NCBI GenBank assembly: GCA_020523885.1
Contig: JAJAPY010000002.1
Coordinates: 236,023 to 300,022, forward strand
Origin: Candidatus Liberimonas magnetica
GTDB taxonomy: Bacteria; Elusimicrobiota; Endomicrobiia; Endomicrobiales; JAFGIL01
DNA: 64,000 nt
Direction of reading: 5' to 3'
Translations under genes and position numbers: made by a program
Notes under the pieces: model-generated
What the model was told of the DNA's origin: nothing
Database searches by the model: none
What the model saw: the letters and a program-made list of their open reading frames with translations, nothing else
Part shown: positions 30,501 to 62,050 of the stretch, one piece after another
Numbering within the stretch: the stretch's first letter is position 1
Layout of the letters: each line of letters opens with the position of its first letter

Positions 30501-30539
30501 ACAGAAGTATAGAACTTTCAATTTTACTAGAAAATAATT

Positions 30540-31639: not shown

Positions 31640-31652
31640 TTAGCAGAACGAA

Positions 31653-32135
31653 GTGGAGCCTAACTTGAGAATAGCACTGATAAATTCATTGTACCTTATT
31701 ATAATTTTCTTAACTGCCTGCGGGAGCAAGGAAAGCCCGGAACTCAGGCCTAATCTTCCTAAGATAGCACCGAAACAGCCTGAGGCGGCAGCTTTAAAAA
31801 AAGTAGCCCCACCGAGATATGCATATACAGGGTATAAATACAGGGATCCGTTTATAGCTTTAAATGCCAAGGGAGCTATGTTAAAGGGCTTAAATGACGT
31901 ACCTATACCTAATATTGACTCGTTGTCTTTAAAAGGCATACTGGACGACGGCAAACAAAAGATAGCTATTTTAGTAGGAGGCGGTTATTCTTTCATGCTG
32001 ATGGACGGCAATCTTTTTGACAGCAGGCGCAGGTTAGTGAACGGAATTACCGGGAGTATAAAAAAGGATTCAGTCGTTATTATAGATGCCATAAAAAAAA
32101 GCAAGGAAATAAAGCTTAAGGAAGAAAGTAAGTAA
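31653..32135 (+). CDS. pilP: PilP-like lipoprotein
   Basis: Lipobox LTAC, YRDPF motif, and a beta-rich C-terminus (LKGILDDGKQKIAILV). The start is uncertain: GTG at 31653 or TTG at about 31665. Confidence 0.6.
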   Translation: MEPNLRIALINSLYLIIIFLTACGSKESPELRPNLPKIAPKQPEAAALKKVAPPRYAYTGYKYRDPFIALNAKGAMLKGLNDVPIPNIDSLSLKGILDDGKQKIAILVGGGYSFMLMDGNLFDSRRRLVNGITGSIKKDSVVIIDAIKKSKEIKLKEESK

Positions 32136-32168
32136 GTTCCGAAGGGATTAACTTATCTGGAGGAAGAA

Positions 32169-47029: not shown

Positions 47030-47889
47030 CACGAAAACACCTGGTAGAAAATAACGGCATTTTGCTCGGAGAATCCATCTGCGCGGTAGGCTGGGTCAAC
47101 AACACCGTCCCTAACGTTAAAGGTGTAGTTGAACTGCCCATGACGGATGTTGCCGGCTCAGGGATCGCCGTGGGTATTTCGCTTGTGGGAAGGCGGCCGA
47201 TATTTGTCATACGGTTCCAGGATTTTTTGATACTTAACGGAAGCTCTCTTATTTTTTATGCGGCGAAAATAAAAGAACTCCATAAAGCCTCAGCTCCGGT
47301 TTTTGTGCGGGCCATAGCCTCGGATTGCCTCGGGCCTGTTCATTCCGGTGTTTTGCACAGCATCTTCATGCATTTCCCGGGATTCCGGGTTTGTTCTCCT
47401 ATGACGCCAAAAGAATACAGAGCTATATGGAAAGATTATATGGCTCATGACGAACCTTTCATGTGCAGCGAGCACAGGGCGAGCTACGCTAATACCGAAG
47501 AGCTTGATGATATTATTTATAAAAATGCGGATATAACTATTTATCCTGTCTCTTCATGCAGGTTTGAAGCTGTAAAAGCGTCAAAGAGGCTCCATGAAGA
47601 CGGTATAAAATGCAATGTTGTGCACCTCGTCTGGCTAAAACCTTTTGTTATAGATAAACGCATACTCGGGCCCTTAAAACAGACACGGAAAGCGCTTGTT
47701 GTTGACCCTGGCCATGAAATCGCCGGCGCCTCAAGGTCAATAGCCTACGAATTATCTTTAGCAGGCGGGTATGCAGTAAACGCCCTGGGGCTTTTAGACA
47801 AAACAAAATGCCTGTGCCCTCCCCTGCAGAACAAGTCCCCGGATGCGGATAAAATATGTAAGAGAGTAAAAGAAATACTAAAACAGTGA
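46990..47889 (+). CDS. E1 beta-like / transketolase pyrimidine-binding + C-terminal domain subunit
   Basis: 299 aa. Overlaps the alpha gene by 40 nt. GESICAVGWV...ELPMTDVAGSGIAVG pattern typical of E1 beta. Confidence 0.7.
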   Translation: MGSKTVAETIKEITRKHLVENNGILLGESICAVGWVNNTVPNVKGVVELPMTDVAGSGIAVGISLVGRRPIFVIRFQDFLILNGSSLIFYAAKIKELHKASAPVFVRAIASDCLGPVHSGVLHSIFMHFPGFRVCSPMTPKEYRAIWKDYMAHDEPFMCSEHRASYANTEELDDIIYKNADITIYPVSSCRFEAVKASKRLHEDGIKCNVVHLVWLKPFVIDKRILGPLKQTRKALVVDPGHEIAGASRSIAYELSLAGGYAVNALGLLDKTKCLCPPLQNKSPDADKICKRVKEILKQ

Positions 47890-47975
47890 AAAACAATAGA
47901 ATAAATGAAGTTTATAAAAACAAATGGTTTTCTATAGAAGCAGTCCGTCTAAAGTATGATGACGGCCCTTATTAA
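47886..47975 (+). pseudogene. Possible 29-codon remnant of a Nudix-hydrolase-like gene
   Basis: GTG in a GTGA overlap with the E1 beta stop. MKNNRINEVYKNKWFSIEAVRLKYDDGPY resembles the N-terminal strand region of ADP-sugar/GDP-sugar Nudix hydrolases, then stops directly before hairpin + GATTACA copy E. Confidence 0.25.
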
Positions 47976-47985
47976 GGTTATTTAT

Positions 47986-48045
47986 AGACATCCTATATGA
48001 CAAGGACGTCTTGATTCCACAGATTGAAAGAGATTACAAAGATAA
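47986..48045 (+). repeat. Hairpin + GATTACA element, copy E
   Basis: AGACATCCT-atatgaca-AGGACGTCT, then TGATTCCACAGATTGAAAGAGATTACAAAGATAAAAAC. Confidence 0.7.
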
Positions 48046-48096
48046 AAACAAACAAATCTATTCAGGTATAAAGAATAGTATCCCGGGAGGAAACTC

Positions 48097-48606
48097 ATGA
48101 AAAGAGCGGTAATAATAACTGGCCCGAATTTTCAGGATGAGGAGTTCATTTATCCTTACTATCGTCTTCAGGAAGCAGGATTCAAAGTCGATGTGGCCAT
48201 AAAAGACAAGGCTGTTACAAAAGGCAAGTACGGCCTGCCGGTAAAACCTACCATGGACGTCACGGAACTTAAGGAGAAAGATTTTGACCTTGTGGTTTTG
48301 CCCGGAGGGCACGAAGCTCCGGACAGGGTCCGCCAGATAAAAGAAGTGCTTGATTTTGTAAAAGCCATGCACGATAAAGGGAAAGTCGTTTCAACTATAT
48401 GCCACGGCCCCTGGATACTAATATCAGCGGGCATAGTAAAAGGAAGGAAGATAACCGGATACGTGGGTATAAAAGATGATATTATAAATGCGGGGGCGCA
48501 GTATGTAGATTTACCGGTAGTAGTTGACGGGAACATAGTTTCAAGCCCGCACTATAAGTATAACGGCGAGTGGATGAGAGAAACATTAAAAAAATTCGGC
48601 CTATGA
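48097..48606 (+). CDS. DJ-1/PfpI-family protein
   Basis: 169 aa. Nucleophile elbow STICHGPWILISAG and LPGGHEAPD. Confidence 0.85.
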   Translation: MKRAVIITGPNFQDEEFIYPYYRLQEAGFKVDVAIKDKAVTKGKYGLPVKPTMDVTELKEKDFDLVVLPGGHEAPDRVRQIKEVLDFVKAMHDKGKVVSTICHGPWILISAGIVKGRKITGYVGIKDDIINAGAQYVDLPVVVDGNIVSSPHYKYNGEWMRETLKKFGL

Positions 48607-48641
48607 ATCTGCGTAATCGGTTTTGTTAATCTGTGTAATCA
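48607..48641 (-). repeat. GATTACA element, copy F (inverted orientation)
   Basis: AATCTGCGTAATCGGTTTTGTTAATCTGTGTAATCA is the reverse complement of TGATTACACAGATTAACAAAACCGATTACGCAGATT. Confidence 0.6.
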
Positions 48642-48662
48642 AAAATTCCGAAGGGACATTTT

Positions 48663-50378
48663 ATGGAAAAGAAATCTAAGATATATGTTGCCGGGCATAA
48701 CGGGATGCTGGGGTCTGCGATCTTGGGGAAACTTTATTCTGAAGGGTACAGGAATATCCTGGTGCGTACGCACTCTCAACTTGACCTTTCGGATCAATCC
48801 CAGGTAAAGCTCTTTTTTGAAAAAGAAAAACCGGAGTACGTGTTTTTTGCCGCGGCAAAAGTCGGTGGGATATTTGCGAATAATACGTACAGGGCTGATT
48901 TTATCTACGAAAACACGATGATGCAGTGCAATGTACTGCATCAGGCATTTTTAAATGAAGTAAAAAAGCTGATATTTTATTCCTGTGCCGATATATATCC
49001 GAAAAACTGCCCCCAGCCTGCAAAAGAAGAATATCTGCTGACCGGCCCTGTTGAGTCTACTTGTGAACCTTTCGCTGTATCGAAGATATCAGGAGTAAAA
49101 ATCTGCGAATCTTATAACAGGCAGTACGGGACCCAGTTCCTGGTCGTTGTACCTCCGAATATATACGGGCCGAACGAAAATTACGATATCATGAATTCCC
49201 AGGTTCTCCCTTCACTGCTCAGGAATTTTCACGAGGCAAAGGTCTCAAATCAGGACAAAGTGATAATCTGGGGTACGGGGCGACCTGTAAGGGATTTTAT
49301 TTTTGTAAATGATGTAGTAGATGCTTCTCTCTATTTAATGAACAATAAAACCGGGGACTTTCTATACAACGTCGGAACAGGAAAGGGGTCTTCCATTAAA
49401 GAGCTGGCAAAGGTTATCAAGAAAGCCGTAGGTTTTACAGGTGACATAGTTTATGATACAGCAAAACCTGACGGCGTCGCAAAAAAACTTCTAGATAGTT
49501 CAAGGATAAATAAATTAGGCTGGGAATGCCGCACAGAGCTTTCCAGAGGAGTTGAGCTTACTTACGGTTCATTTTTAGAGCAGGTTAAGAAAAAGGAAAT
49601 AAGGACTACCGGCGTTTCACGGGTCAAAAGCTGCCAAAAAGACAAAAAAGTTATAAATGCACGTTCAAAGAAAAGTACAGCTTCGTTAACCCAGCCCGAT
49701 TCATACTCAAATAAAGTGGTCTTAAAACCCTGGGGCTATGAATTTCTCGTTTTTGAAAACGAGTCTATAGCGGTTTGGTTCCTGCATCTAGGCCAGGACC
49801 ATTCTACCTCGATGCATTGTCATCGAAACAAAAAAACCTCGCTGGTCCTTCTTTCCGGAAAAGCCATGAATAATACATTGGACCACAGGAGGTATTTGAA
49901 AGGCGGGGATGCTGTAATTCTTGAAAAAGGGGTATTCCATTCCACCAAAGCGTTGTCGAAAGAAGGGATAGACCTCCTTGAAATAGAATCGCCTCCTATC
50001 AAAACAGACCTCCTAAGGCTGCAGGACAAGTACGGCAGGGAGTACTACGGCTACGAAGGTATAGGGGAAATGGAAACAATAAATATAAACGGGTATAACT
50101 ATTTCAATTTCACGGAATTAGAAAAGCATGTATCCTGCCCGGTAGAAACAGACAGCTATACCATAATCTTCGAGGTCTTTACAAATAACAGAGAATTTAA
50201 AAAGGGTTTTAAAACCAAAAGCGGCGAGATATGTGTTTCTTTAAGAGGCAGTATCTATGACGGCAAAGGCAATGTGGTTTTGAGTTTAGGCGACGCACAA
50301 AAGTCTGAAACATTTATTAACGACGTTTTAAGCATTAAAGAAAAATTGGTTCTCTTAAGGATAAAGTCCCAGGTATAG
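48663..50378 (+). CDS. Fusion protein: degenerate Fcl-like SDR domain + C-terminal cupin domain(s)
   Basis: 571 aa. Residues 1-~310 align by eye to Fcl ([23 protein letters not shown]), but the catalytic positions are changed. Residues ~345-460 carry a cupin pattern ([48 protein letters not shown]). Confidence 0.7.
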   Translation: [571 protein letters not shown]

Positions 50379-50382
50379 ATTT

Positions 50383-51948
50383 ATGAAAAGTAGGGTTTAT
50401 AAGATTGAGAATATAGCTGTCATTATGAACGGCCTGGATAATATAGCCGTAGCAAAGGCTTTCATAAATAAAGGCGTTTTGATCCAGTGGTCAAATAATA
50501 TAATTAAAATAAAATCTAACATACCGGCCGGGCATAGGTTTGCTTTGCATAATATTAAAAAGGGCTGGAAGGTTATCCAATACGGCAGCCCTTTTGGCAT
50601 ATCAAAAGGTATTTTTTCAGGGCAGCTAGTCCATGATAAATTGATCAGGGAGTTTAGGCATACACAGCGCCAGCTGGAGTTATTGGCCAGGAATAATAGG
50701 GTATTTGCAAAAATTGACAAGCCCGGTCATATTCCGGACAAATACTTTTATGGGATCAGGCGGAAAGGCGGCAGCATAGGAACCAGAAACTATTATATCT
50801 TGGTCCCCACTTCCTTATGTTCAAGCGACATGGCCCGGCGCATAGCTCTTTCGTTTGACGTTGACCCTGTAATCAAGAAAAAATATAAAAATATTGACGG
50901 GATCGTAGCAGCCGGCCATACTGAAGGCTGTGGATGTAATGACGGTGATATCATAGACCGGTTAGTCCTTACTTTGAAAAACACTATTTCTCATCCGAAT
51001 GTCGGCGGTGCATTGATCATTGACCTCGGATGCGAAAAAACAAATAAAAGTTATATTTCAAAGTTTTTCGATGGTTTGTCAAAAACTGGAAAACCGGTTG
51101 ATTATTTATCGATCATCGAATCAGGAGGTGATCAAGCAGCTTATAAAAAGGGGAAAGTTATAGTTTTGAAAAGGCTTAAATCTGTAAATAATATAAAAAG
51201 AGAAAAGTTCCCGTTAGAAAAACTGATAATAGGGACTGAATGCGGCGCTTCCGATACATTCTCAGGAATTACCGCAAACCCGCTGATAGGCGCAACCGTA
51301 GACATGGTCATTGGTTCAGGCGGCTCTGCTATACTTTCAGAGATGCCTGAAATGATAGGTGCAGAAGATATCCTTATAAAAAGAATGGTTTCAAAAGAAG
51401 TAATAGAAAAATATTTTAACGGCTTGAAATATTATACAGGCTTGGCCAAGAAATTAGATATTTCTATGAACGGAAACTTTGTACCCGGAAACAAAAAAGG
51501 CGGTTTGGTAAACCTGACCCTTAAAAGCCTCGGTGCTATACAGAAAGGAGGGCATTCGCCCATAGTTGATTTTGTAGATTATGCCCAGAAAATAAGTAAG
51601 AAGGGGCTGACTATTATGAACGGCCCGGGCAATGATCTTGAATCAATGACAGGGCTGACGGCTTCAGGGGCTAATGTCATATTGTTTTCTACAGGCATGG
51701 GAACACCTGAAGGAAGTTTAATAGTCCCAGTAATAAAGATACCTTCGACAACAAAAGTATTTAAGTCCCTTAAGGACGATATGGATTTCGATTCAGGTGT
51801 TCTTATCAAAGATATGAGTTTATTGAATAAGCTCGGTGAAAAACTTCTGGCTATGGTAATAAAGGTTGCTTCGGGAGAAAAAACACGGTCTGAAATCCAT
51901 AATAAAAGGTCTTTCCAGATATGGACAGCAGGCAAGTTGTCTTTATGA
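50383..51948 (+). CDS. UxaA-family (altronate/galactarate-type) sugar-acid dehydratase
   Basis: 521 aa. N-terminal SAF-like domain (IPAGHRFALHNIKKG) plus UxaA body (GTRNYYILVPTSLCS, HTEGCG, GTECGASDTFSG). Confidence 0.75.
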   Translation: MKSRVYKIENIAVIMNGLDNIAVAKAFINKGVLIQWSNNIIKIKSNIPAGHRFALHNIKKGWKVIQYGSPFGISKGIFSGQLVHDKLIREFRHTQRQLELLARNNRVFAKIDKPGHIPDKYFYGIRRKGGSIGTRNYYILVPTSLCSSDMARRIALSFDVDPVIKKKYKNIDGIVAAGHTEGCGCNDGDIIDRLVLTLKNTISHPNVGGALIIDLGCEKTNKSYISKFFDGLSKTGKPVDYLSIIESGGDQAAYKKGKVIVLKRLKSVNNIKREKFPLEKLIIGTECGASDTFSGITANPLIGATVDMVIGSGGSAILSEMPEMIGAEDILIKRMVSKEVIEKYFNGLKYYTGLAKKLDISMNGNFVPGNKKGGLVNLTLKSLGAIQKGGHSPIVDFVDYAQKISKKGLTIMNGPGNDLESMTGLTASGANVILFSTGMGTPEGSLIVPVIKIPSTTKVFKSLKDDMDFDSGVLIKDMSLLNKLGEKLLAMVIKVASGEKTRSEIHNKRSFQIWTAGKLSL

Positions 51949-52577
51949 ACAAATATAGAGCTGTCTTGTTTGACTTTGACGGTGTTATAGCCAGGACCAT
52001 GGAAGATAATTATAGAGCGTGGAAGGTTGCTCTTAAGGGACATAAGGTGTGCTTTTCCAAAAAGGAATATTTTCTCCTTGAAGGCATGAACGTTAAAAAT
52101 GTAGCACGGAAATTGCTTGGGAAAAAGAATAATAGATCCGGGTTGGTCGATAAAATATGCAAAGCTAAAGATGATTATTATTTAAACAATAATTCGTTCT
52201 CATTGTACAGCGGAGTCAAAACTCTAATATCGCGTCTAAGGAAGAAAGGCTATAAATTGGGGCTGGTCACAGGAGCAAGCAAGGTTCGCCTCGTAAAATC
52301 CGCCGGTGCAGATTTTCTTAAACGCTTTGAAGCAGTGATTACCGGAGATATGGTAAGAAAACCTAAACCGGACCCCCTGCCGTATCTTTTAGCTGCAAAA
52401 GCAATGTCGGTAAACCCTGCCCAATGCCTGGTGGTAGAGAATGCCCCTTTGGGCATTGAATCGGCAAAAAATGCAGGGATGTTCTGTGTAGCCGTGGCTT
52501 CGACTTTAAACAAGAAATATCTAAAGAAGGCGGATATTGTGATAGACAGAATACAAATGCTTGAAGGCCTACTATGA
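51945..52577 (+). CDS. HAD-IA hydrolase (beta-phosphoglucomutase/phosphatase-like)
   Basis: MNKYRAVLFDFDGVIA (DxDG motif), GLVTGAS, KPKPDP, ENAPLGIESAKNAGM. The ATG at 51945 forms an ATGA overlap with the uxaA-like stop. The track start at 51921 is an alternative. Confidence 0.8.
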   Translation: MNKYRAVLFDFDGVIARTMEDNYRAWKVALKGHKVCFSKKEYFLLEGMNVKNVARKLLGKKNNRSGLVDKICKAKDDYYLNNNSFSLYSGVKTLISRLRKKGYKLGLVTGASKVRLVKSAGADFLKRFEAVITGDMVRKPKPDPLPYLLAAKAMSVNPAQCLVVENAPLGIESAKNAGMFCVAVASTLNKKYLKKADIVIDRIQMLEGLL

Positions 52578-52584
52578 AGCAGTT

Positions 52585-52790
52585 TTGTATTTCTCAGTCT
52601 CCGCTATGTTCTTATGATGCCTCACTTTGCGGTAAGACCGCGAGGTATCAAGAGGTATTGTCATCGCGAGGTCGCTTTGGCGACCGTGGCGATCTCGACG
52701 TTGCAACATCATTTTTAGATTGCTTCTCCCGCTTTGCGGTATCGCAATGACAGATAGGGAACCCTGCGGAAGCCACAGAAAATTGCAAGT
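52585..52790. repeat. Cluster of GC-rich hairpin repeats in an AT-rich spacer
   Basis: Contains ATCGC-ga-GGTCGC-tttg-GCGACC-gtg-GCGAT, GATTGCTTCTCCCGCTTTGCGGTATCGCAATGACA and CACTTTGCGGTAAGACCGCGAGGT. Confidence 0.6.
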
Positions 52791-52814
52791 TAAAAATTGT
52801 GATAGGACCTATTA

Positions 52815-54284
52815 ATGCAGCAAAAAATCGACATTGTCTTGATCAATCCGGGTGACAGAAAATATAACTACCAGGCGCTCGGCCTAGACCTGGCTGCCAT
52901 CGAACCTCCTTTCTTGATAGCAGTGACCGCCTCATACCTCAGGAATAAAGGGTTCAACGTTGCAGTAATAGATTCGAATGCTGAAAATATAACACCTGAA
53001 GAGACGGCAATGAAAGTGAAGCGGTTAGACCCGTTTCTTGCAGCAGTCATAGTTTACGGTTCAAACCCTCAGGCATCGACTCAGAACATGACGGTTGCAG
53101 GAAGGATATGTAAAGAAATAAAAAACGATACGCCGTCCAGGGTTATAATAGGCGGGCTGCACCCTTCCGCACTGCCAAAACAGACATTAGAAGAAGAAAC
53201 TGTGGATTTTGTAATTGAAGGCGAAGGGCCTTATACTCTTGAATCTTTGCTTGGAATTTTAAAAACAGGTAAAAGTGATTTCAAAAATATCCCAGGTCTT
53301 TGGTATAAGGAAAACGGTAAAACAAAAAATAACGGCAGGGCTACTCTCATCGGAGACCTTGATGAAGTATTGCCTATAGGGGCGTGGGACCTTCTGCCGA
53401 TGGATAAATATAAGGCGCATAACTGGCATTGTTTTGACGATATTGAGAACAGGAAGCCTTACGGAGCTATCTATACAAGCCTGGGGTGCCCGTTCTCATG
53501 CGTGTTTTGCTGCATTAATGCGCCGTTCGGAAAGCCGGGAATCCGTTACCGCAGCCCTAAATTGGTTGTTGACGAATTATCCCTGTTAAATGAAAAGTAT
53601 GGTGTAAAAAATGTTAAGATAGCGGATGAATTGTTCATTTTTAGTAAAGAGCATTATATGGCTATCGTAGACCTCATCATAAAAAGAGGGCTTAAGCTTA
53701 ACCTGTGGGCGTATGCAAGGATAGATACGATCGACTTTAATTTCTTGAAGAAAATGAAAGAAGCCGGCATAAACTGGCTGGGTATTGGCATAGAATCTGC
53801 CAACGAATCTGTCCGCGACGGGGTTCATAAACAAATGCGCAGAAAAGATATAGTAAACGTAGTAAGGAAAGTGCAGGAGGCAGGCATAAGGGTGGGAGCA
53901 AATTATATTTTTGGATTGCCGGATGACACGATGCAAACCATGCAGGAGACTCTGGACATGGCATTGGAAATAAATTCCGAGTGGGCGAACTTTTCATGTG
54001 CTATGGCATATCCGGGCTCGAAACTTTATGAAATAGCTATTAAAGAAAAATTGAAGCTTCCCAAAGGCTGGCACAACTACTCTCCTTATGCCAAGGATAT
54101 CTTGCCTCTTCCTACCAAGTATTTAAGCCCCGTAGAAGTTCTGCGGTTCAGGGACAATGCATTTAATAAATATTTTGGAAACCCTAATTATTTAAATATG
54201 ATTGAAACTAAATTCGGTACAAGAGTAAAAGAGCATATACTTGCTATGACTAAAACAAAACTCGAACGGATTTTATTGCAATGA
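52815..54284 (+). CDS. B12-binding-domain radical SAM enzyme (class B)
   Basis: 489 aa. N-terminal cobalamin-binding-like Rossmann region and the CxxxCxxC motif in YTSLGCPFSCVFC. Confidence 0.85.
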   Translation: MQQKIDIVLINPGDRKYNYQALGLDLAAIEPPFLIAVTASYLRNKGFNVAVIDSNAENITPEETAMKVKRLDPFLAAVIVYGSNPQASTQNMTVAGRICKEIKNDTPSRVIIGGLHPSALPKQTLEEETVDFVIEGEGPYTLESLLGILKTGKSDFKNIPGLWYKENGKTKNNGRATLIGDLDEVLPIGAWDLLPMDKYKAHNWHCFDDIENRKPYGAIYTSLGCPFSCVFCCINAPFGKPGIRYRSPKLVVDELSLLNEKYGVKNVKIADELFIFSKEHYMAIVDLIIKRGLKLNLWAYARIDTIDFNFLKKMKEAGINWLGIGIESANESVRDGVHKQMRRKDIVNVVRKVQEAGIRVGANYIFGLPDDTMQTMQETLDMALEINSEWANFSCAMAYPGSKLYEIAIKEKLKLPKGWHNYSPYAKDILPLPTKYLSPVEVLRFRDNAFNKYFGNPNYLNMIETKFGTRVKEHILAMTKTKLERILLQ

Positions 54285-55501
54285 ACGATAAAAAGATGTT
54301 GTTAATTTATTACAGGAATAAAGAGACCTTGAGCGAGGTTGGGAATATTTTGATAGACCTGTCTGCAAGCTTAGGCGGTTTTTTTATTGATTATAAAGAC
54401 CTGTATTTTCAAAAAGGCAACAAAGGGACGGAAGGGTATATAGAAAGCTTCGTACAGGACAATAAAATAGACATCGTTATGTTCTGGAGTGAGGCAACCG
54501 GCTTTCATTTTAGCGTAGAATTCTTTGCGAAGTTAAGAAAAAACCTGTACACCGTGATGCTTGTCGGGGATACAGAATACTATTTTGAGGTAAGGGACAG
54601 GTACTATGCACAAGCCATGGACCTGGTAGTTGTTTTTAATAAACCATGCATAAGTTATTATAAATTGATAGGCATAGAAGCGATAGTCTGCTATAGTTTC
54701 TTTGACGGAAAATATTATAAGAAATATCCCGGTCTTAAAAAAGATATGGATGTTTCCTTTGTAGGCCTGCATTCCTGCCACAGCAGGCGCTTAGAGTATC
54801 TTGAATATTTAAAAGCCAACGCTATACCCGCCGTAAGTTATGGGCCGAACTCAGTTAACGGGCCGGTAAGTGCGGAACGTCTGGTAGAAATCATAAACAA
54901 AACTAAGATCAATCTGAATTTTACCGACGCTCTTGATTCAACGCGCCTGACAAGGAATTTAAAGGTACATAAATTGTTAAAGCAGCCAAAAGGACGTATT
55001 ACACAGGCCGCACTCTGCGGCGGGTTTGTGCTGTCCGAGTATGCTTACGGTATAGAAGATACTTTCGAGATCGGCAAAGAGATAGACGTGTTTTACAGCA
55101 AGGACGACCTTTTGGAAAAAGTAAGGCACTACCTGAAAAATTACGATAAAAGGGAAGCTATGGCCCTAAGCGCCTACAAAAAAGCCGTTGAGCTCTACGA
55201 CGGAAATAAAGGCATACCACAGCTTTTTAATAAAATAAAAGAGATGTCTATTAAAAAGCGGCAGGGGCAGAGAAAACTTTACCTGGATAAAGTCTTTATT
55301 GCGAATTATTCCACTTTCAGGGTTTTATTGATTATAAAATTCTTAAAAAGGCTGCAGCTGGGGTATGCCGTAGAAGAATTTTTATTGCTTTTAAAATGCA
55401 GGAAGTTAGACCTGTACCAGGTGCTGGTATTCATAAAAGAAGAAATAATCGACAACATAGCTCCGGTCAGACGATTCCTGAACTATTGTAAGCGGCCATG
55501 A
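54281..55501 (+). CDS. CgeB-like / Glyco_trans_1_2-like putative glycosyltransferase
   Basis: 406 aa. Central DVSFVG...RRLEYLEYL and C-terminal GRITQAALCGGFVLSEY...FEIGKEIDVFYSKDDLLEKVRHYL pattern seen in CgeB-type GT-B C-terminal domains. ATGA overlap with the upstream rSAM gene. Confidence 0.45.
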   Translation: MNDKKMLLIYYRNKETLSEVGNILIDLSASLGGFFIDYKDLYFQKGNKGTEGYIESFVQDNKIDIVMFWSEATGFHFSVEFFAKLRKNLYTVMLVGDTEYYFEVRDRYYAQAMDLVVVFNKPCISYYKLIGIEAIVCYSFFDGKYYKKYPGLKKDMDVSFVGLHSCHSRRLEYLEYLKANAIPAVSYGPNSVNGPVSAERLVEIINKTKINLNFTDALDSTRLTRNLKVHKLLKQPKGRITQAALCGGFVLSEYAYGIEDTFEIGKEIDVFYSKDDLLEKVRHYLKNYDKREAMALSAYKKAVELYDGNKGIPQLFNKIKEMSIKKRQGQRKLYLDKVFIANYSTFRVLLIIKFLKRLQLGYAVEEFLLLLKCRKLDLYQVLVFIKEEIIDNIAPVRRFLNYCKRP

Positions 55502-56940
55502 AGATACTTTTAATATTCCCGAAATGGACACAAGAATACGGAATGATAACTTACTTTGCCAGAAAAGCGTCTGTCTGGCCGCCTTTAAACCTTGCATATC
55601 TTGCAGCTATAGCCGAAGATCAGGGGCACACTGTAAAGATAATAGACGGCGAGGCCGAAGACCTACCGGTTGAAAAGATGGTCGTTGAAGCCGGAAAATT
55701 TGCGCCCGATATTATCGGTATGACCGCTACTACGCCGTTCTTCAGGTTTTCGCTTGAGCTTGCAAAGCGCCTTAAATCAAACTTTAGCAAAGTACCCATA
55801 GTTATCGGCGGGCCGCATATATCGGTCTTGAAAAAGGAAGCTTTTTATGATTGTTTCGATTATGGCTTCATAGGAGAATCCGACGGGTCCTGGCAGCTTT
55901 TTTTAAAATGCATAGAAAATAAAGGAGATATAAGCCAGATAAAGGGGATTCTATACAGGGAAAAAGAAGAAGTGAAGTTTACCGGCCAGCCTGACCTGAT
56001 AGCGGATGTAGATTCAATTCCTGTACCTGCGCGGCATTTGTTAAAACTTAACCGGTATAATATAGGCACGCTGCACGGCACTAAGAATTTTACTACGGTA
56101 ATGACTTCAAGAGGGTGCCCGTTCAAGTGTATCTTCTGCAGTACTGATGTCTTTGGCAAAAAGCTCAGGCAAAGGTCAATAGGCCTTGTAATTGACGAGA
56201 TAACTTCGATAATATCGAAGTTTAACATAAGGCATATTATATTCCTTGATGACACATTAACTATAGACAAAAAGTACATAATGGAGTTATGCGATAATAT
56301 AATAAGCCGAAAGTTGAACATAACGTTCGACTGCGGGACAAGGGCAAACCTTGTAGACGAAGAATTGATAAAAAAAATGGCAGAGGCAGGCCTTATCAGG
56401 ATATCCTTCGGCCTTGAGTCGGTAGATGAAAACATAAGAAGGATAATGAAAAAAGAGGTGCCGCTTGAAAGTTATAAAAAGGCCAATGAAATAACCAATA
56501 GGTACAATATCGAAACGTTAAATTCGTGCATGATAGGCCTCCCGGGAAAAACGAAGGAAACGGTGCGCAACACCCTTCATTTCCTTAGGAGTTCAAAAGA
56601 AATAAAACAGGCCAATATAAGCATTGCCGTGCCGTATCCGGGGACCGAACTTTATGAGATGGCAAAGAAAGGCGAGCACGCCTTGAAACTGGAAACAAAT
56701 GATTTTTCAAAGTTCATCCGGTACGGCGGCGCCGTTATGTCGGTCGGCAGCCTGTCACCGCAGGAGCTTATCAGGATACAGAACGATGCTTTTATAAGCA
56801 TATATCTGGCGCCCTGGAGATGGGTACCGGTCTTAAGGAAATCCGGCGTGATAGGTTTGTTCCTTACGTTTTTGAGGTTCATAAAAAGTTTTCAAAGGGT
56901 GATCTTAAACACGGACGGATTTTTTTGGTTCAAAGACTGA
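55498..56940 (+). CDS. B12-binding-domain radical SAM enzyme (class B), paralogue
   Basis: 480 aa. MTSRGCPFKCIFC cluster motif and an N-terminal B12-like domain. ATGA overlap with the upstream gene. Confidence 0.85.
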   Translation: MKILLIFPKWTQEYGMITYFARKASVWPPLNLAYLAAIAEDQGHTVKIIDGEAEDLPVEKMVVEAGKFAPDIIGMTATTPFFRFSLELAKRLKSNFSKVPIVIGGPHISVLKKEAFYDCFDYGFIGESDGSWQLFLKCIENKGDISQIKGILYREKEEVKFTGQPDLIADVDSIPVPARHLLKLNRYNIGTLHGTKNFTTVMTSRGCPFKCIFCSTDVFGKKLRQRSIGLVIDEITSIISKFNIRHIIFLDDTLTIDKKYIMELCDNIISRKLNITFDCGTRANLVDEELIKKMAEAGLIRISFGLESVDENIRRIMKKEVPLESYKKANEITNRYNIETLNSCMIGLPGKTKETVRNTLHFLRSSKEIKQANISIAVPYPGTELYEMAKKGEHALKLETNDFSKFIRYGGAVMSVGSLSPQELIRIQNDAFISIYLAPWRWVPVLRKSGVIGLFLTFLRFIKSFQRVILNTDGFFWFKD

Positions 56941-56956
56941 TATAGTTGATATTAAT

Positions 56957-57547
56957 TTGGAGGCGGAAATGGAAGAAGAGAAAATAATTAAGATGCTCAG
57001 CGACCTTAAGCACCGCGTATTTCCGAGGCCTTTTGAAAGGTTGGCTGTTTCCGGGAAGAACCTGACTGGTGTTGAAATAGGGGTATATAAAGCAGACCAT
57101 GCCGAGAGCCTTCTTGAGAATCTGGATATAAGACGGCTCTATTTAGTCGATCCCTATAACCTATACGGGGATTATGACGCGGGCAAAGCTCATTATGGTA
57201 TAGACCAGGACCCTCTTGAGCTGGCAAAAAAAGAAGCTGTAAAACGCTTAAGCAGGTTCTCAGATAAAATATCCTGGGTTTACAAGAAATCATCGGACTC
57301 GATGAACGATATACCGGACGGCCTTGATTTCGTTTACCTTGACGGTAATCACGGAGAAGCTTTTGTTAACGAGGAATTAATAAATTTTTACCCTAAAATC
57401 CGCAAAGGCGGTGTTATAGGCGGGCACGATTTTTATAACGGATTTTGCAGGGAACATGACGGAGTAGTCCAGGCAGTCACCAAGTATGCCGTAAAAAACG
57501 GGCTGGTTCTACAGGTTGAATTGCCTGACTGGTGGATAATAAAATAG
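56957..57547 (+). CDS. Class I SAM-dependent methyltransferase (Methyltransf_24-like)
   Basis: 196 aa. GVEIGVYKADHA (motif I-like), DFVYLDGNH, GGVIGGHDF. Start is TTG at 56957 or ATG at 56969. Confidence 0.6.
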   Translation: MEAEMEEEKIIKMLSDLKHRVFPRPFERLAVSGKNLTGVEIGVYKADHAESLLENLDIRRLYLVDPYNLYGDYDAGKAHYGIDQDPLELAKKEAVKRLSRFSDKISWVYKKSSDSMNDIPDGLDFVYLDGNHGEAFVNEELINFYPKIRKGGVIGGHDFYNGFCREHDGVVQAVTKYAVKNGLVLQVELPDWWIIK

Positions 57548-57559
57548 AGGTAAATAATT

Positions 57560-58777
57560 ATGCAGTCAATTTTTGGCGATAAAAATTTGTTATTGCTGTA
57601 TTGTGACGATAACAATCAGAATCATAAATTCCACCTGGATATATTATCCGAATACTTCAAGGAAAGCTTCAGGTTAAATATCGTCAAACAGGTTATTGAT
57701 AACGGGATAGGAAAAACTCAGGATCATATCAGGCACATAATCGATAATAAAGGTATTTCGGTAGTTATCGTATTCCCGTACGTGACCAATTTCGATATCC
57801 CTGTGGAATTTTATGCCTCGCTCAGAAATAAAGTGAACCTGGCCCTCTGGCTGTTCGATGACGACCAGTATTTCAATGCCTATAATAAATACTATGCCCA
57901 GGCTTTCGATACTCTGGCTACGATGGACTACTTAAGCGTATTTGCCTACAAGAACATCGGGATACCTGCAGTGCTTTATTTTGCATCGCATTTAAAAGAA
58001 CGTTACCATCCGGTAAACATAAAAAAGGATATAGATGTATGTTTCGTAGGTGACTGCAAAAAGAACGACCGTATGGAATACATTCAGTATCTCGCGGAAA
58101 ATAAAATAAAAATAAAGGCTTTTGGCAGAGGGTCAAATTACGGTTTCCTCGAATGGGATAAATTCTCGGAGACTTTTTCAAGAAGCAGGATAAACCTTAA
58201 TTTTACAAAGATAGATAAACTTAACTGGCTGAATAAAGATGACCCGCTGTTGAAAAATGCAAGGCAGGCAAAAGCAAGGCCGATAGAAATAGCGCTGACG
58301 GGCTCGTTCTGCCTGTCAGAATATTCTCCGCAATTAAACGCTATGTTTGAAATAGGAAAAGAAATAGACGTTTTCGGAAACAAAAAAGAACTTCTTGAGA
58401 AAGTGAACTATTACCTGTCCAACCCGGAAAAGCTGGATGAGCTAGCAAAAAATTCTTATCAAAGAGCCCTAAACAACTACGAAAGCAGGGTCTATATACC
58501 TCGCGTCTTAAATGAGTTCCAAAAAGCTTTTAAGAGGGATAATATAAATTATTTTGATAAAGATAAAATATATTTAAGCAACAGTTTTAAGTTAAAATCA
58601 ATAATCGGGTTGACTTTTACGGTTTTTGTCCAACTTTCCAGGCTTAAGCTGTTTAATGCTTTGGAAACATTTTTGGGGCTGTTTAAATACGGGCCCGTTT
58701 TATTTTTAAAAGGGTTTTATTTGGGCGCTATAAGGGTATTTGCTAACAGGTGGCACAAATATTTCGCAGCAAATTAA
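57560..58777 (+). CDS. CgeB-like putative glycosyltransferase, paralogue of 54281-55501
   Basis: 405 aa. Colinear with the first copy (DVCFVGDCKKNDRMEYIQYL; ARPIEIALTGSFCLSEY...FEIGKEIDVFGNKKELLEKVNYYL). Confidence 0.45.
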   Translation: MQSIFGDKNLLLLYCDDNNQNHKFHLDILSEYFKESFRLNIVKQVIDNGIGKTQDHIRHIIDNKGISVVIVFPYVTNFDIPVEFYASLRNKVNLALWLFDDDQYFNAYNKYYAQAFDTLATMDYLSVFAYKNIGIPAVLYFASHLKERYHPVNIKKDIDVCFVGDCKKNDRMEYIQYLAENKIKIKAFGRGSNYGFLEWDKFSETFSRSRINLNFTKIDKLNWLNKDDPLLKNARQAKARPIEIALTGSFCLSEYSPQLNAMFEIGKEIDVFGNKKELLEKVNYYLSNPEKLDELAKNSYQRALNNYESRVYIPRVLNEFQKAFKRDNINYFDKDKIYLSNSFKLKSIIGLTFTVFVQLSRLKLFNALETFLGLFKYGPVLFLKGFYLGAIRVFANRWHKYFAAN

Positions 58778-58810: not shown

Positions 58811-60010
58811 ATGAATAAAATAAGGTATCCGTTCGGAACGATAACGATTACCAAAAAAGCGAAAATACTGGCAAACAAAATACTTAACTCAGGAAGGCTA
58901 TCAGGCGGGAAATATGTAAGGGAATTTGAAAAAAGGTTCGCAGAGCTTGTCGGGACAAAAGAGGCTGTAGCCGTATCTTCCGGCACTGATGCCGACACAC
59001 TGGCTATGGCTGTGCTTTATGATTACGGCGCAAAAAGAGGAGATGAGGTAATAGTGCCTGCCTTGTCATTTGCCGCCACGGGGAATTCCGTGCTGCATGC
59101 GGGGTTTATCCCGAAATTCGTAGATATAAAAAGGCATACCCTTAATATAGATGAAACAAGAATAGAAAAAGCCGTAACCAAAAAAACAAAGGCTATACTG
59201 GCTGTCCACCTTATGGGCAAACCGGCTGAAATGGACACTATAAATAAGATAGCAAAAAAACACGGCCTTCTGGTTATTGAAGATGCCGCTGAAGCTCAAA
59301 GCGCTGTTTATAAAGGGAAAAATATCGGAACTATAGGCGACATGGCTGCTTTCAGCCTGTACATTGCACATATAATTTCAACAATAGAGGGGGGCATAGT
59401 AACCACCAATAATACACGGTATGCCGAAATCTTGAGGTCTCTAAGGGCGCACGGAAGGGCCTGCGACTGTAATATCTGTGTGCTTAACACAACCGGGGCA
59501 GAATGCAAAAAAAGGTTTAAATACAAAACCGATATCCGTTTCATTTTTGAGCGTATAGGTTATTCTGCAAAGATGAACGAGATAGAAGCAGCCGTAGGGC
59601 TTGGCTATCTTGAAATATATCCTGAGATATTCAAAAAAAGAATGGATAATTTTGTTTATTTAAACAAACAGTTTAAACAGTTCAATAATTATTTATTTAC
59701 AATCGTTCAAGAGCCTTACGAAAAAATGGCTCCCTACTGTTTTGCGGTTATACTTAAAGAGGGGGTAAAGTTCACCCGCGATGAGCTGGTCAGTTACCTT
59801 GAAATAAACGGCATAGATACACGGACGCTTTTCCAGTCTATGCCGACCCAGTGCAAAGGGTTTGAATTCTTAGGCTACAAAACCGGCGAATTTCCCGAAG
59901 CAGAATACATCGGTAATAACGGTTTTCATATAGGCACACACCAGGATATCGCAAAACCTCAGATAGATTATTTTATCGCATTGCTGGATAAGTTTTTGAA
60001 GAAAAAGTAA
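58811..60010 (+). CDS. DegT/DnrJ/EryC1-fold PLP/PMP enzyme of the ColD/E1 (sugar 3-dehydratase) type
   Basis: 399 aa. The fold-type I sugar aminotransferase pattern is present, but the Schiff-base Lys position is His (FSLYIAHIISTIEGG). LRSLRAHGRA and FHIGTHQ resemble the ColD blocks IRAHGW and FVGNHQ. Confidence 0.7.
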   Translation: MNKIRYPFGTITITKKAKILANKILNSGRLSGGKYVREFEKRFAELVGTKEAVAVSSGTDADTLAMAVLYDYGAKRGDEVIVPALSFAATGNSVLHAGFIPKFVDIKRHTLNIDETRIEKAVTKKTKAILAVHLMGKPAEMDTINKIAKKHGLLVIEDAAEAQSAVYKGKNIGTIGDMAAFSLYIAHIISTIEGGIVTTNNTRYAEILRSLRAHGRACDCNICVLNTTGAECKKRFKYKTDIRFIFERIGYSAKMNEIEAAVGLGYLEIYPEIFKKRMDNFVYLNKQFKQFNNYLFTIVQEPYEKMAPYCFAVILKEGVKFTRDELVSYLEINGIDTRTLFQSMPTQCKGFEFLGYKTGEFPEAEYIGNNGFHIGTHQDIAKPQIDYFIALLDKFLKKK

Positions 60011-60099: not shown

Positions 60100-62050
60100 C
60101 ATTCCCGAAATTTGTTATTGGAAATATGGGACATACTACAATAACAAGTCAAGAGCGTAGCGCACCTGTCCCAGAATTTGGGGCAAAAAATTAGTAATAT
60201 AGCTTTAAAGAACCGATGGTCTTTCACAACAGAAGGAACGAACCTTGAAATCGTTGTGTAAATCCTGCGTTAAAGATAAACTTTACGCTGATTATACTTT
60301 ACCCTAAGTGAAAAGTTCCGGTGAAAGCCCCAAATTGTCCCCTACAGGGTCAAACCCTAACGTTGTCTAAGACGGGGTCATCCACCGGAACATTAAATTG
60401 ATTTATATCAAACGGCGCATTATTTTTAAGCATAACGAAAGCAGTTCGAAGGAATTTTTCAACGAATTTGATTTTAAGTTTAGCTTTAGCAGTTTTTGAA
60501 TTACCCCGTTCTTTCAATTTGTCCTGAAACATTTGCCTGATAATCTTGTTTTTTGCTATGGCAATATTTGCGGCTTGGCATACGGCATAACGAAGCAGGG
60601 AATTCCCTTTTTTAGATATTTTCTCTTTACCCTGGAATTTACCGGATGACATGGTTTCTATATCCAGGCCTGCGAATTTAGTGATTTGCCTGTCACTGAT
60701 AAAGTTGTCAATGTTTATGTTTGATTTAAAAACCGAAGTGGTAAATATGCCATAACCGGGGATAGACAATAATTGACGGTAAACATCGTCTTGCATACAG
60801 AAGGCAAACAGGATTTTATCTATTTCAGCAATATCTTTTTTCGTTCTTTGAATATCACGGGCAATCAATTTGGATTCAAGTATTATTGCTGACGGCATAG
60901 GAAAGCCAATAGATGTTTTAGCGGCTTGCCAGGTTTGGGTCAATCGTAAATATCTTTTACTTTTTTGGCTAACTGACAATGAAAAGATGCTCATAAAATA
61001 CTGAAAATCCATTTTTTTAATGTTGTCACTGGAAGGGCAATGCTCAAGCAAAGTTAAAACATCAGGGTCTTCGGCGTTAGGGAATATATTTCCGAGTTCT
61101 GGAAAATGGCAAGTCCAGATATTATTTTGAATACGTGTTTTAAGCGATGTTTTTGTTTTCATTAACCGTTGCCTTAGAAGCAAATACTTGCGAATGTTTG
61201 AGGCTTGCGTGTTTTCATCACGGTAGAACATGATTTTGCCCTGGCGCATTAAATCTGCGACATTATAGGCATCGCGAGGGTCATTTTTACCCCAGCGGCC
61301 GCCGTCAATAGTTTTACGGTTGCTTTTAGCGGCAACAGAAGATACATAAACCACCAGATAGCCTTTGCTTTTCAGATATTCGGACAAAGGCTTATGATAA
61401 TTAGCTGTTGGTTCAACACCAATGATAACACTTTTAAGGTTATTCATTTCCATTGTTTGCTCGATTTTGTAAGTGAACTTTTGAAAATCTTCAAGATTAT
61501 GATTAACATAGTATTTTCTTAAAAGAATTTCCTTTTCTATGTTATAGAAACAGGCAACTGACGAATTTTTAGCTGCATCAATACCGATAAGCAGATAATC
61601 CTTGTTCTTTTGAATCTCTGGTCTTACTTGACGAAACTGTTCGACTTTGGATATACTTTGCATGAGCCGCCTCCTTGTTAGGTTTGTTCTTGCAAACTTA
61701 CTCTAACACAGGTGGCTCGCTTTTTTCAAGTTCTTAGCTCTTTCTTTTAAAGTTTAAAATGATTTTTCAAGGTCTTTTTAAAATCAATGTCGACTGCTCT
61801 AAGGGGAAATCCTTTCCCCTTAAACCCCTTGGATTACATCTTAAACTACAAAGAAAGACCTAAATTCATTATACAACGTTGTTCGGCATTACGGTATTGG
61901 AATGAATACCGAATTACCTAACTACGTCCCCAAGACCCAAATCTTTTCAGGTGCCAGTTTAATTAAAACAATTACCGATGCTGAATTGGTAACGAAATAA
62001 GGGACAAATAAGCAATTGTTAGCAACAAGGAACCATTACCGGCCCCGCGG
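60100..62050 (-). mobile_element. IS110-family insertion sequence (ends NOT determined; coordinates approximate)
   Basis: DEDD-type transposase gene flanked by 339 nt (3' side) and 417 nt (5' side) of ORF-free, hairpin-rich sequence. No terminal inverted repeats are evident, as expected for this family. Confidence 0.4.
60350..61663 (-). CDS. IS110-family (DEDD/RuvC-like + Transposase_20) transposase/recombinase
   Basis: 437 aa. LLIGIDAAKNSSVA N-terminal DEDD motif, IPGYGIFTTSVF helix-hairpin-helix region, SGKFQGKEKISKKGNSLLRYAVCQAA. Confidence 0.85.
   Translation of the reverse strand: MQSISKVEQFRQVRPEIQKNKDYLLIGIDAAKNSSVACFYNIEKEILLRKYYVNHNLEDFQKFTYKIEQTMEMNNLKSVIIGVEPTANYHKPLSEYLKSKGYLVVYVSSVAAKSNRKTIDGGRWGKNDPRDAYNVADLMRQGKIMFYRDENTQASNIRKYLLLRQRLMKTKTSLKTRIQNNIWTCHFPELGNIFPNAEDPDVLTLLEHCPSSDNIKKMDFQYFMSIFSLSVSQKSKRYLRLTQTWQAAKTSIGFPMPSAIILESKLIARDIQRTKKDIAEIDKILFAFCMQDDVYRQLLSIPGYGIFTTSVFKSNINIDNFISDRQITKFAGLDIETMSSGKFQGKEKISKKGNSLLRYAVCQAANIAIAKNKIIRQMFQDKLKERGNSKTAKAKLKIKFVEKFLRTAFVMLKNNAPFDINQFNVPVDDPVLDNVRV

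Follow-up and report, generated by a model that had tools for sequence, protein, structure and literature searches.

The closest known system to the one described here is the capsular GDP-heptose pathway of Campylobacter jejuni, in which HddA, HddC, GmhA and GmhB are accompanied by the C4-dehydrogenase Cj1427, a pyridoxal-phosphate-dependent C3-dehydratase, epimerases of the cupin type and Fcl-like C4-reductases (PMC10680097), and the type of operon that we report is in itself ordinary. Radical S-adenosylmethionine (SAM) enzymes with a B12-type domain, hereafter abbreviated as rSAM, belong to a different body of work: a 2026 review of the class-B enzymes makes no mention of envelope-glycan or nucleotide-heptose substrates, and AprD4 and ArsL have the class-B architecture without binding cobalamin (PMC12931638). 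Searches of the available literature found no B12-type rSAM described in heptose, O-antigen-type or nucleotide-sugar pathways, and no pairing of a radical SAM enzyme with a CgeB protein or, in Elusimicrobia, with a glycosyltransferase. The stretch of DNA analyzed here, hereafter the window, comprises 64,000 nucleotides of Candidatus Liberimonas magnetica (Elusimicrobiota; assembly GCA_020523885.1, contig JAJAPY010000002.1, positions 236,023 to 300,022 of the forward strand) and contains a five-gene locus in which two rSAM genes alternate with two genes for CgeB-like, putative glycosyltransferases (hereafter GT-likes), accompanied by one methyltransferase (MTase) gene.

The locus (52.8-58.8 kb) forms the distal part of an envelope-glycan operon that extends from 43.1 to 60.0 kb. 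We consider it likely that this operon of a diderm elusimicrobiote makes and transfers a GDP-heptose-type sugar, with the two rSAMs acting as tailoring enzymes of the pathway and the GT-likes as an ancient pair; the product would be a deoxygenated, probably branched and C-methylated sugar of this type. More tentatively, and with somewhat less than even confidence, we propose that the two rSAMs are the first radical or cobalamin enzymes in primary envelope-glycan biosynthesis, C-methylating or in some other radical way remodelling a GDP-heptose-derived sugar, either as such or once it is lipid-carried, between the steps catalysed by the two GT-likes. The five genes were found, co-directional and in the order reported by an initial annotation of the window, at the following positions:

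52815-54284, + strand: rSAM_A, B12-domain radical SAM enzyme of 489 amino acids (PF02310 + PF04055)
54281-55501, + strand: GT-like A, predicted GT-B glycosyltransferase of the A clade, 406 amino acids, with PF13524 (CgeB-like) over residues 181-304
55498-56940, + strand: rSAM_B, B12-domain radical SAM enzyme of 480 amino acids (PF02310 + PF04055)
56969-57547, + strand: MTase, class I SAM methyltransferase (PF13578, Methyltransf_24, E 1.5e-8)
57560-58777, + strand: GT-like B, predicted GT-B glycosyltransferase of the B clade, 405 amino acids (PF13524)

The Pfam calls for all five proteins lie above the gathering cut-offs. Both rSAMs have the architecture recognized in the initial annotation, namely an N-terminal PF02310 domain (56 bits in rSAM_A and 71 bits in rSAM_B, against a cut-off of 32) followed by PF04055 (E 1e-21 and 5e-25, respectively), with the CX3CX2C motif at residue 225 of rSAM_A (GCPFSCVFC) and residue 207 of rSAM_B (GCPFKCIFC). 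PF13524 scores 73.2 and 64.7 bits in the GT-likes against a cut-off of 25, and the blocks FEIGKEIDVF (residue 262/263) and LLEKV (277/278) are present in both copies, as had been noticed before. Pairwise alignment also bears out the suspected paralogy of the two pairs, the GT-likes being 34% identical over 330 residues (E 4e-53) and the rSAMs 28% identical over 436 residues (E 2e-51). The start of the MTase, as read from the DNA, is likeliest the ATG at 56969, which has a GGAGG 6 nucleotides upstream, rather than the TTG at 56957; a sequence search of this protein against solved structures gave no relative, and it is probably a sugar O-methyltransferase.

The initial annotation had interpreted the alternating order as a duplicated module in which each rSAM is coupled to its own transferase. 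We reject this interpretation because the paralogues of the window are not each other's closest relatives, the rSAMs being 28% identical to each other versus 60-71% to their orthologues elsewhere and the GT-likes 34% versus 40-56%. Orthologues of rSAM_A (65-71% identity) occur in Thermodesulfobacteriota, Nitrospirota, Ca. Brocadia and other Elusimicrobiota, and those of rSAM_B (60-70%) in Kiritimatiellota, Omnitrophota, Margulisiibacteriota, Methanoperedens and other archaea; given their low mutual identity, the two enzymes constitute separate orthogroups. For the GT-likes, 50 distinct loci were gathered from a genome scan, a metagenome scan and look-ups (the scan of genome contigs, based on an alignment of 14 sequences, gave 9 loci) and analyzed with tblastn and a neighbour-joining tree, which splits the family into an A and a B clade, with one member of each present in 13 distinct loci. 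Among these loci are ones from Ca. Methanoperedens, from Nitrospirota and from other Elusimicrobiota, as well as numerous metagenome contigs; identity to GT-like A of the window is 38-46% for the A-type members, and identity to GT-like B is 41-56% for the B-type members, the relatives of the latter being found in Methanoperedens, Nitrospirota and other Elusimicrobiota. Phylogeny thus retains from the idea of tandem duplication an ancient A/B pair of GT-likes, inherited as a unit of its own, but no module that includes the rSAMs, and the supposed partnership of rSAM_B with a GT-like is not supported either: such adjacency occurs in no other of the 50 loci. A recent local duplication of an rSAM plus GT unit, followed by insertion of the MTase, would account for the order rSAM-GT-rSAM-(MT)-GT and for the paralogy within both pairs, yet it has a negligible probability: all four genes are far nearer to orthologues from other phyla or archaea than to their paralogues in the window, the A and B clades are separated in the tree and represented together in the 13 loci, and an rSAM of a third group, from Nitrospirota, is slightly nearer to rSAM_B (32% identity, E 2e-55) than rSAM_A is. 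The interleaving of rSAM, GT-like, rSAM, MTase and GT-like is a local gene order and not a duplicated functional unit. It carries a general lesson, in that an alternating gene order can mimic a duplicated module when two independent ancient families really share one operon.

What lies between the A and B genes varies among the loci: nothing in four of them, a flippase with 11-12 transmembrane segments in five, an rSAM of 576 residues in two, while one further locus has precursor genes there and another has miscellaneous genes, the combination of rSAM_B and MTase being confined to the window among the 50 loci. The intervening flippases include a Wzx protein (PF01943; locus L042), a MurJ protein (PF03023; L007) and two that cluster with that of L042, and the flippase-like protein in L022 has no Pfam hit. 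Genes for proteins of about 485 residues in this position were considered as divergent rSAMs and rejected, their products being Wzx, MurJ or Wzy_C proteins with 9-14 transmembrane segments. A second lineage of GT-likes (L048/50/51/53) also occurs in tandem pairs, and an Enterobacteriaceae metagenome-assembled genome (MAG) has four GT-likes in tandem (L011, 7288-12333). Cultured Paludibacterium (L001/L002; CP069163.1 and AP029060.1) has a single GT-like gene, with an ATGA overlap to the gene of a Wzy-like protein of 472 residues and nine transmembrane segments.

The adjacency of rSAM and CgeB-like genes is found in other genomes too. Of the distinct GT-like loci, 21 are well flanked, with 3 kb or more of sequence on either side. 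A B12-type rSAM gene is the direct neighbour of a GT-like in 10 of these 21 and is found at a distance of no more than 5 kb in 15, while no rSAM is present within 10 kb in five, namely those of Paludibacterium, the Enterobacteriaceae MAG, a Deltaproteobacteria MAG, L056 and L066. In the wider set of 50 loci, rSAM_A shares the locus of an A-type GT-like in 12 and abuts it in six, either on the same strand, in both orders and with overlaps of 4-8 bp (window, L019, L021 and L023), or convergently (L049 and L053). The commonest immediate neighbour of A-type GT-likes is a third B12-rSAM orthogroup of about 576 residues (for instance L037, 6500-8224), which is also found in L003, L004, L022, L024, L034 and L042 and is absent from the window. 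At the family level, then, the association between rSAMs and GT-likes is real, but the partner is not fixed and each family occurs without the other. Clustering of all open reading frames of the 50 loci gives as further companions of the GT-likes ColD/DegT-like enzymes (15 loci), Fcl-like short-chain dehydrogenases/reductases (SDR; 14), GHMP kinases (13), nucleotidyltransferases (NTP-transferases; 11), transketolase halves (7-8), MsbA-type ABC exporters (7), NUDIX proteins (7) and AsnB (6). Of note, Nitrospirae GWF2_44_13 (L004/L005; MHEE01000012.1) has seven rSAM genes, six of them of the B12 type, in 21 kb around an adjacent A/B pair, together with genes for an MsbA-type ABC exporter, AsnB, a GT4 enzyme and an MTase; in the related Nitrospirota contig L024, the corresponding place is taken by a HemN-like rSAM.

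The proximal part of the operon and the gene that follows the five-gene locus encode the following proteins, in which SDR1 and SDR2 denote two SDR enzymes, TPP stands for thiamine pyrophosphate, and PLP and PMP for pyridoxal and pyridoxamine phosphate:

43159-44148, + strand: GHMP sugar kinase, HddA-like (PF00288/PF08544)
44236-45174, + strand: SDR1, sugar-nucleotide dehydrogenase (full-length match to PDB 6vo6/6vo8, E 1e-118)
45161-46123, + strand: SDR2, GDP-fucose-synthase-like epimerase/C4-reductase (E. coli GDP-fucose synthetase, E 2.6e-88)
46124-47029 and 46990-47889, + strand: TPP-dependent E1 alpha and beta (PF00676/PF02775 and PF02779/PF02780)
48097-48606, + strand: DJ-1/PfpI protein, named after the Brocadia gene call
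48663-50378, + strand: Fcl-like SDR fused to a cupin (Pfam/NCBIfam)
50383-51948, + strand: UxaA/galactarate-dehydratase-like protein (Pfam/NCBIfam)
51921-52577, + strand: HAD phosphatase (Pfam/NCBIfam)
58811-60010, + strand: probable ColD/E1-type PLP/PMP-dependent sugar 3-dehydratase, labelled DegT (PF01041; best NCBIfam match RfbH)

All genes between 43.1 and 60.0 kb lie on the + strand and are separated by short gaps or overlap, the overlaps being -14, -40, -28, -4 and -4 bp. The ATGA overlaps at 54281-54284 and 55498-55501, which we also read in the DNA, had been taken in the initial annotation to imply translational coupling and protein complexes; they are present, but they represent ordinary operon compaction, since overlaps of -14, -40 and -28 bp occur elsewhere in the same operon. 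Between the HAD gene and rSAM_A lies a GC-rich spacer of 237 bp (52578-52814) with short inverted segments, one of only two gaps above 100 bp in the operon, of which no significant repeat was detected elsewhere in the window or in the compared loci. Scans for promoters and terminators along the operon returned counts at shuffle expectation and are thus uninformative on sub-operons. An IS110-family transposase gene (60350-61663, - strand) lies immediately 3' of the operon.

The sugar-precursor genes provide the frame in which the rSAMs have to be understood. The GHMP kinase has HddA as its best NCBIfam match, with 160 bits and thus below the cut-off of 600. SDR1 is 58-69% identical to genes of Brocadia, Methanoperedens and Paludibacterium, and its PDB match 6vo6 is presumably C. 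jejuni Cj1427, a GDP-heptose C4-dehydrogenase. E1 alpha and beta are 63% and 70% identical to the corresponding pair of Brocadia; at other loci split genes for the N and C parts of transketolase stand in for them, and the pair probably forms a two-carbon C-C bond on a keto- or aldehydo-sugar. The DegT protein matches ColD (2gms, 3gr9) and CDP-4-keto-6-deoxyglucose 3-dehydrase (3bcx) over its full length, at residues 4-395, and a His replaces the Schiff-base Lys in ...YIAHIISTIEGG, as is visible in the alignment of perosamine synthetase ('...fgnKiittgEGG') with the window protein ('...yiaHiistiEGG'). This replacement, combined with the full-length matches to ColD/E1 enzymes, indicates that the protein probably acts as a sugar 3-dehydratase rather than as an aminotransferase. 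An NTP-transferase, a SIS-domain protein (GmhA) and GmhB were found neither in the operon at 43-60 kb nor among the other open reading frames scanned in the window, a few smaller ones being outside the scan; GmhA, HddA, GmhB and HddC are all present in the related loci L003, L016 and L001.

Comparison of whole loci places rSAM_A within this precursor block. In Ca. Brocadia pituitae (L015; AP021856.1, 1228-14590) the order is SDR1, E1 alpha, E1 beta, an rSAM, DJ-1, Fcl/cupin, UxaA, HAD, rSAM_A, HddA, HddC and a ColD-like gene, and nine genes (SDR1, E1 alpha, E1 beta, DJ-1, Fcl-cupin, HAD, rSAM_A, HddA and ColD-like) are shared with the 44236-52577 region of the window at 51-79% identity and in near-identical order. 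The same cassette block is found in metagenome contigs L021 and L042, and the stretch from DJ-1 to HAD that precedes rSAM_A is conserved in order, with 49-85% identity, in L015, L021 and L042. That an elusimicrobiote and an anammox planctomycete have this cassette in common suggests that an entire pathway was transferred laterally. L015 has no small GT-like gene, PF13524 being present there only within giant multi-domain transferases encoded downstream. The Methanoperedens locus L016 has the order transketolase, transaldolase, E1-like pair, SDR1, rSAM_A, HddA, HddC, DegT, rSAM_B, GmhA, GmhB and ABC exporter, and in four more loci anchored on the rSAMs (L017, L098, L099 and L100, from Kiritimatiellota, an archaeon, Omnitrophota and Nitrospirota, respectively) the orthologues again lie among genes for transketolase/E1, DegT and SDR proteins, in most cases together with a GHMP kinase, an NTP-transferase or both; the transferases near their rSAMs vary, being GT1, PF13524, PMT_2/GT2 and GT2. 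The position of rSAM_A is conserved, following either HAD or the C-terminal half of transketolase, and the loci anchored on GT-likes have the recurrent order of precursor block, rSAM_A, often the 576-residue rSAM, GT-like A, flippase and GT-like B. In the archaeal contig L098, which also carries rSAM_B and E1-like genes, a DegT domain and an entire TPP enzyme of the ALS type (TPP_enzyme_N/M/C) form a single product of 998 residues (16325-17452), a fusion that ties the PLP chemistry of 4-keto-sugars to TPP-dependent formation of C-C bonds.

Neither rSAM reaches any NCBIfam equivalog (HpnJ, BchE, PhpK, HpnR, AprD4, the ladderane-type rSAM and others), the best scores being those to HpnJ/BchE, 160-183 bits versus cut-offs of 481-578. 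By sequence, the nearest solved protein is AprD4 for both (E 2.4e-24 for rSAM_B and 7.7e-15 for rSAM_A), followed by TsrM, TokK and MgmA. The model of rSAM_A (predicted local distance difference test, pLDDT, of 85) has as top matches TsrM, AprD4, MgmA, OxsB, CysS and TokK, with template modelling (TM) scores of 0.63-0.73, and aligns along its whole length with TsrM, OxsB, TokK and CysS, so that on the modelled fold the architecture is that of class B. For the GT-likes no solved structure is detectable by sequence. The AlphaFold (AF2) model of GT-like A, built with 45 homologues (pLDDT 92, predicted TM score 0.89), comprises two Rossmann-like halves plus an additional C-terminal helical domain of about 90 residues, and Foldseek returned 202 PDB matches at E<=0.001, the top 50 being nearly all of GT4 type with probability 1.0. 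Among these are ManT, BshA, GlgM, PimB', MshA and PglA (TM about 0.55-0.6, 9-16% identity), the highest being 7qsg, a methylmannose-polysaccharide mannosyltransferase (11% identity, TM 0.57). The GT-B fold anticipated in the initial annotation is thus supported by the model, and we regard the GT-likes as predicted GT-B glycosyltransferases. About 30 near-invariant positions of the family are kept in both the A and B clades, and because of this conservation both copies look catalytically competent. An exhaustive profile search retrieved 824 cluster representatives at E<=1e-30, nearly all stand-alone proteins of about 400 residues; of the longer exceptions tested, some have three GT-like domains and others a PF13578 MTase, TPR repeats or DUF3880, and no fusion of an rSAM with a GT-like was found among the best 150 of the 824 representatives. 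One fusion of PF13524 with PF13578 (P0501) is distant from the window genes, with 25% and 30% identity, and offers weak support.

From these elements a pathway can be proposed. The operon would build a GDP-heptose-type sugar that is oxidized at C4, deoxygenated at C3, epimerized or reduced, and that the TPP enzyme would probably extend or branch. The two rSAMs would act as independent tailoring enzymes of this sugar pathway, most likely by cobalamin-dependent C-methylation of unactivated sugar carbons and most likely on the nucleotide-activated sugar, before its transfer. We favour this reading because conservation of the rSAMs equals that of the precursor enzymes (60-71% identity among rSAM orthologues, compared with 38-47% for the GT-likes), because they keep conserved positions in the precursor block and because they co-occur with varying families of transferases. 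Acting in turn or as a heteromer, GT-like A and B would then transfer the finished sugar or sugars to an acceptor that is linked to lipid and faces the cytoplasm, with the PF13578 MTase O-methylating the product. The glycan would finally be flipped, as the Wzx/MurJ flippases between the GT-likes of related loci suggest, and be passed to a ligase of the Wzy_C type, for use in lipopolysaccharide (LPS) or in the glycosylation of proteins such as pilin.

Other readings of the same locus deserve comparison with this one. In mycobacterial methylmannose polysaccharide, mannosylation alternates with methylation, and in moenomycin biosynthesis MoeK5 acts on a lipid-linked intermediate; by analogy, each rSAM of the window, perhaps in complex with a GT-like, might methylate, or modify in some other radical way, a just-added lipid-linked sugar before the next transfer. 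The frequent adjacency counted above speaks for such an arrangement, as do the abutment of rSAM_A and A-type GT-likes in six loci, the location of an rSAM between A and B in the window, L003 and L022, and the top structural match of GT-like A to the methylmannose-polysaccharide enzyme 7qsg. Yet that match reflects the generic GT4 fold, the rSAM partner changes from locus to locus (groups 0, 1, 7 and others), rSAM_B adjoins a GT-like in the window only, the five well-flanked loci listed above do without any nearby rSAM, and L016, L017, L099 and L100 have rSAM orthologues without a PF13524 gene in the vicinity; the lack of fusions among the best 150 representatives and the generic nature of ATGA overlaps in this operon point the same way. 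We therefore consider this reading unlikely, and the modify-then-transfer logic suggested in the initial annotation, possible as it may be at the level of the glycan, is less supported than a role of the rSAMs as pathway enzymes. The PF13524 proteins might, alternatively, not be sugar transferases at all but non-catalytic scaffolds, or transferases of glycerol-phosphate, ribitol-phosphate or pyruvyl groups, enzymes that likewise have GT-B-like folds, given that their clade has no characterized member and no PDB relative by sequence, that they lack an intact EX7E motif (its second Glu alone, E242, is kept, at about 89%, the consensus residue eight positions upstream not being Glu), that this Glu is Gln in the A copy of the window, and that the additional C-terminal domain of about 90 residues is conserved. 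We judge this quite improbable, because the top structural matches are all GT4 enzymes using nucleotide sugars, R170, K237 and E242 occupy C-domain positions typical of nucleotide-diphosphate binding, the literature on the outer core of lipooligosaccharide treats PF13524 proteins as ordinary glycosyltransferases, and the loci supply both nucleotide-sugar donors and flippases.

A different question is whether the radical chemistry is C-methylation. One or both rSAMs might be cobalamin-independent dehydratases like AprD4, which is a sugar 1,2-diol dehydratase, or oxidative or rearranging enzymes like BchE/HpnJ that feed the TPP step; for example, the C6-C7 diol of a heptose could be dehydrated to a keto or aldehyde group that TPP-E1 or transketolase then extends. 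AprD4 is not only the best PDB match of both rSAMs by sequence but also among the top three by structure (TM 0.71), HpnJ and BchE, neither of which is a methylase, give the highest NCBIfam scores, rSAM_A most consistently adjoins the C-terminal half of transketolase/E1 or the HAD/UxaA block, no GDP-heptose 4,6-dehydratase was recognized in the window by Pfam and NCBIfam scans, and the locus already has a conventional MTase. Against this, all family scores remain far under their cut-offs, PF02310 is above threshold over the whole N-domain, TsrM is the top structural match and most characterized class-B enzymes are methylases (PMC12931638). Such alternative chemistry thus appears rather unlikely, if well worth keeping in view.

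Several observations weigh against the pathway that we prefer, in which the rSAMs tailor a nucleotide-activated heptose and the GT-likes transfer it. The NTP-transferase, GmhA/GmhB and flippase of related loci are lacking in the window and a transposase lies 3' of the operon, so the cluster may be rearranged, split or incomplete. Each GT-like of the window departs from its family at one near-invariant position, with Gln instead of Glu242 in A (Glu in 88% of the A clade) and Leu instead of Arg291 in B (Arg in 94% of the B clade), a pattern that could be a sign that the two copies depend on each other functionally. The abutment of A-type GT-likes with rSAM_A, in both orders and with some overlaps, in six of the 50 loci, and with the 576-residue rSAM in seven, is compatible with a closer functional link between rSAM and GT-like than we have assumed. 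A Rossmann-like domain is no proof of cobalamin binding, the best PDB match being AprD4, a non-binder. Finally, substrates, products and order of steps are deduced from genomic context, as no enzyme of the window operon or of any orthologous locus is characterized.

Genes further upstream in the window are consistent with the envelope setting. They include bamA, skp, lpxD, lpxC-fabZ, lpxA, lpxI, lpxB and msbA, the type IV pilus set PilB/T/C/D/M-Q, and genes for a Wzy_C protein, two large membrane proteins, an SGNH protein and an LPG_synthase_TM protein. One of them bears on the end of the proposed pathway:

34282-35904, + strand: Wzy_C-family protein (PF04932, E 8.8e-16), with a TPR-like C-terminal half

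This gene lies directly 3' of pilMNOPQ (29311-34289) on the same strand, and its product could be an O-antigen ligase or an O-oligosaccharyltransferase of the PglL/TfpO type that glycosylates pilin with the glycan encoded downstream. It is followed by two genes (35894-37930 and 37927-39978, + strand, with a 4-bp overlap) for polytopic membrane proteins of about 680 residues that have no Pfam match; by position they belong to the glycan region, and they may be paralogues of each other. Among the lipid A genes, LpxC and FabZ are fused (10932-12278, + strand) and LpxI replaces LpxH (13344-14144, + strand). An IS200/Y1-type transposase gene (21653-22231, + strand) is located between recG and the pilus genes.

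What makes the operon unusual is that two conserved families of B12-type rSAM, a TPP-dependent pair forming C-C bonds and a paired GT-B family are found within a GDP-heptose toolkit, additions that recur in Elusimicrobiota, Nitrospirota, anammox Planctomycetota, Omnitrophota, Kiritimatiellota and Methanoperedens. Should the rSAMs work on nucleotide sugars or on growing glycans, the reach of class-B chemistry, with its antibiotics, cofactors and ribosomally synthesized and post-translationally modified peptides, would come to include the cell envelope. New sugar structures would then be predicted on ecologically important anaerobes, among them branched or C-methylated deoxyheptoses that would make up a new family of surface sugars in uncultivated species. 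The cassette could plausibly make a methyl-3,6-dideoxyheptose. The O-glycan of the Kuenenia S-layer contains a residue of 174 Da reported as unidentified; speculatively, its composition by our own arithmetic, C8H14O4, fits such a sugar, though it was in Ca. Brocadia, and not in Kuenenia, that the cassette was verified.

Set beside the known systems, the rSAM, GT-like, E1, DJ-1 and UxaA components of the cassette have no characterized orthologue. The window shares with the GDP-heptose pathway of C. jejuni the GHMP kinase, the 6vo6-like SDR, the Fcl-like reductases, the cupin and the His-type 3-dehydratase, to which related loci add GmhA, GmhB and a nucleotidyltransferase; it differs in its radical SAM, TPP-E1/transketolase, DJ-1 and UxaA-like parts, which the C. 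jejuni toolkit does not contain (PMC10680097), and also in its transferases and export route, the latter being that of a Kps-type capsule in C. jejuni. The window rSAMs resemble the class-B enzymes TsrM, TokK/ThnK, CysS, Mmp10/QCMT, OxsB, GenK and Fom3, as well as AprD4, in the combination of a Rossmann B12-type domain with a CX3CX2C barrel, but they are only 14-19% identical to the solved members, have no curated equivalog and belong to an envelope-glycan/nucleotide-heptose cassette of anaerobic bacteria and archaea. The GT-likes, whose homologues include database entries named 'spore maturation protein CgeB', share with GT4 enzymes (PimA/PimB', BshA, MshA, ManT and PglA) and with CgeB/YkvP the GT-B fold, the PF13524 C-domain and conserved Arg, Lys and Glu residues. 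They depart from GT4 in their low identity to solved enzymes (9-16%), the altered EX7E motif, the extra C-terminal helical domain and their existence as an ancient A/B pair that often flanks a flippase gene. A last parallel concerns branched sugars: yersiniose is formed by an E1 3-dehydrase followed by YerE, and aldgarose and avilamycin involve pairs similar to PDH-E1 alpha/beta. The operon of the window resembles yersiniose-type branching in combining a ColD/E1-type 3-dehydratase with a TPP-dependent enzyme, but this enzyme is E1 alpha/beta (split transketolase elsewhere) and the scaffold on which it would work is apparently a GDP-heptose.

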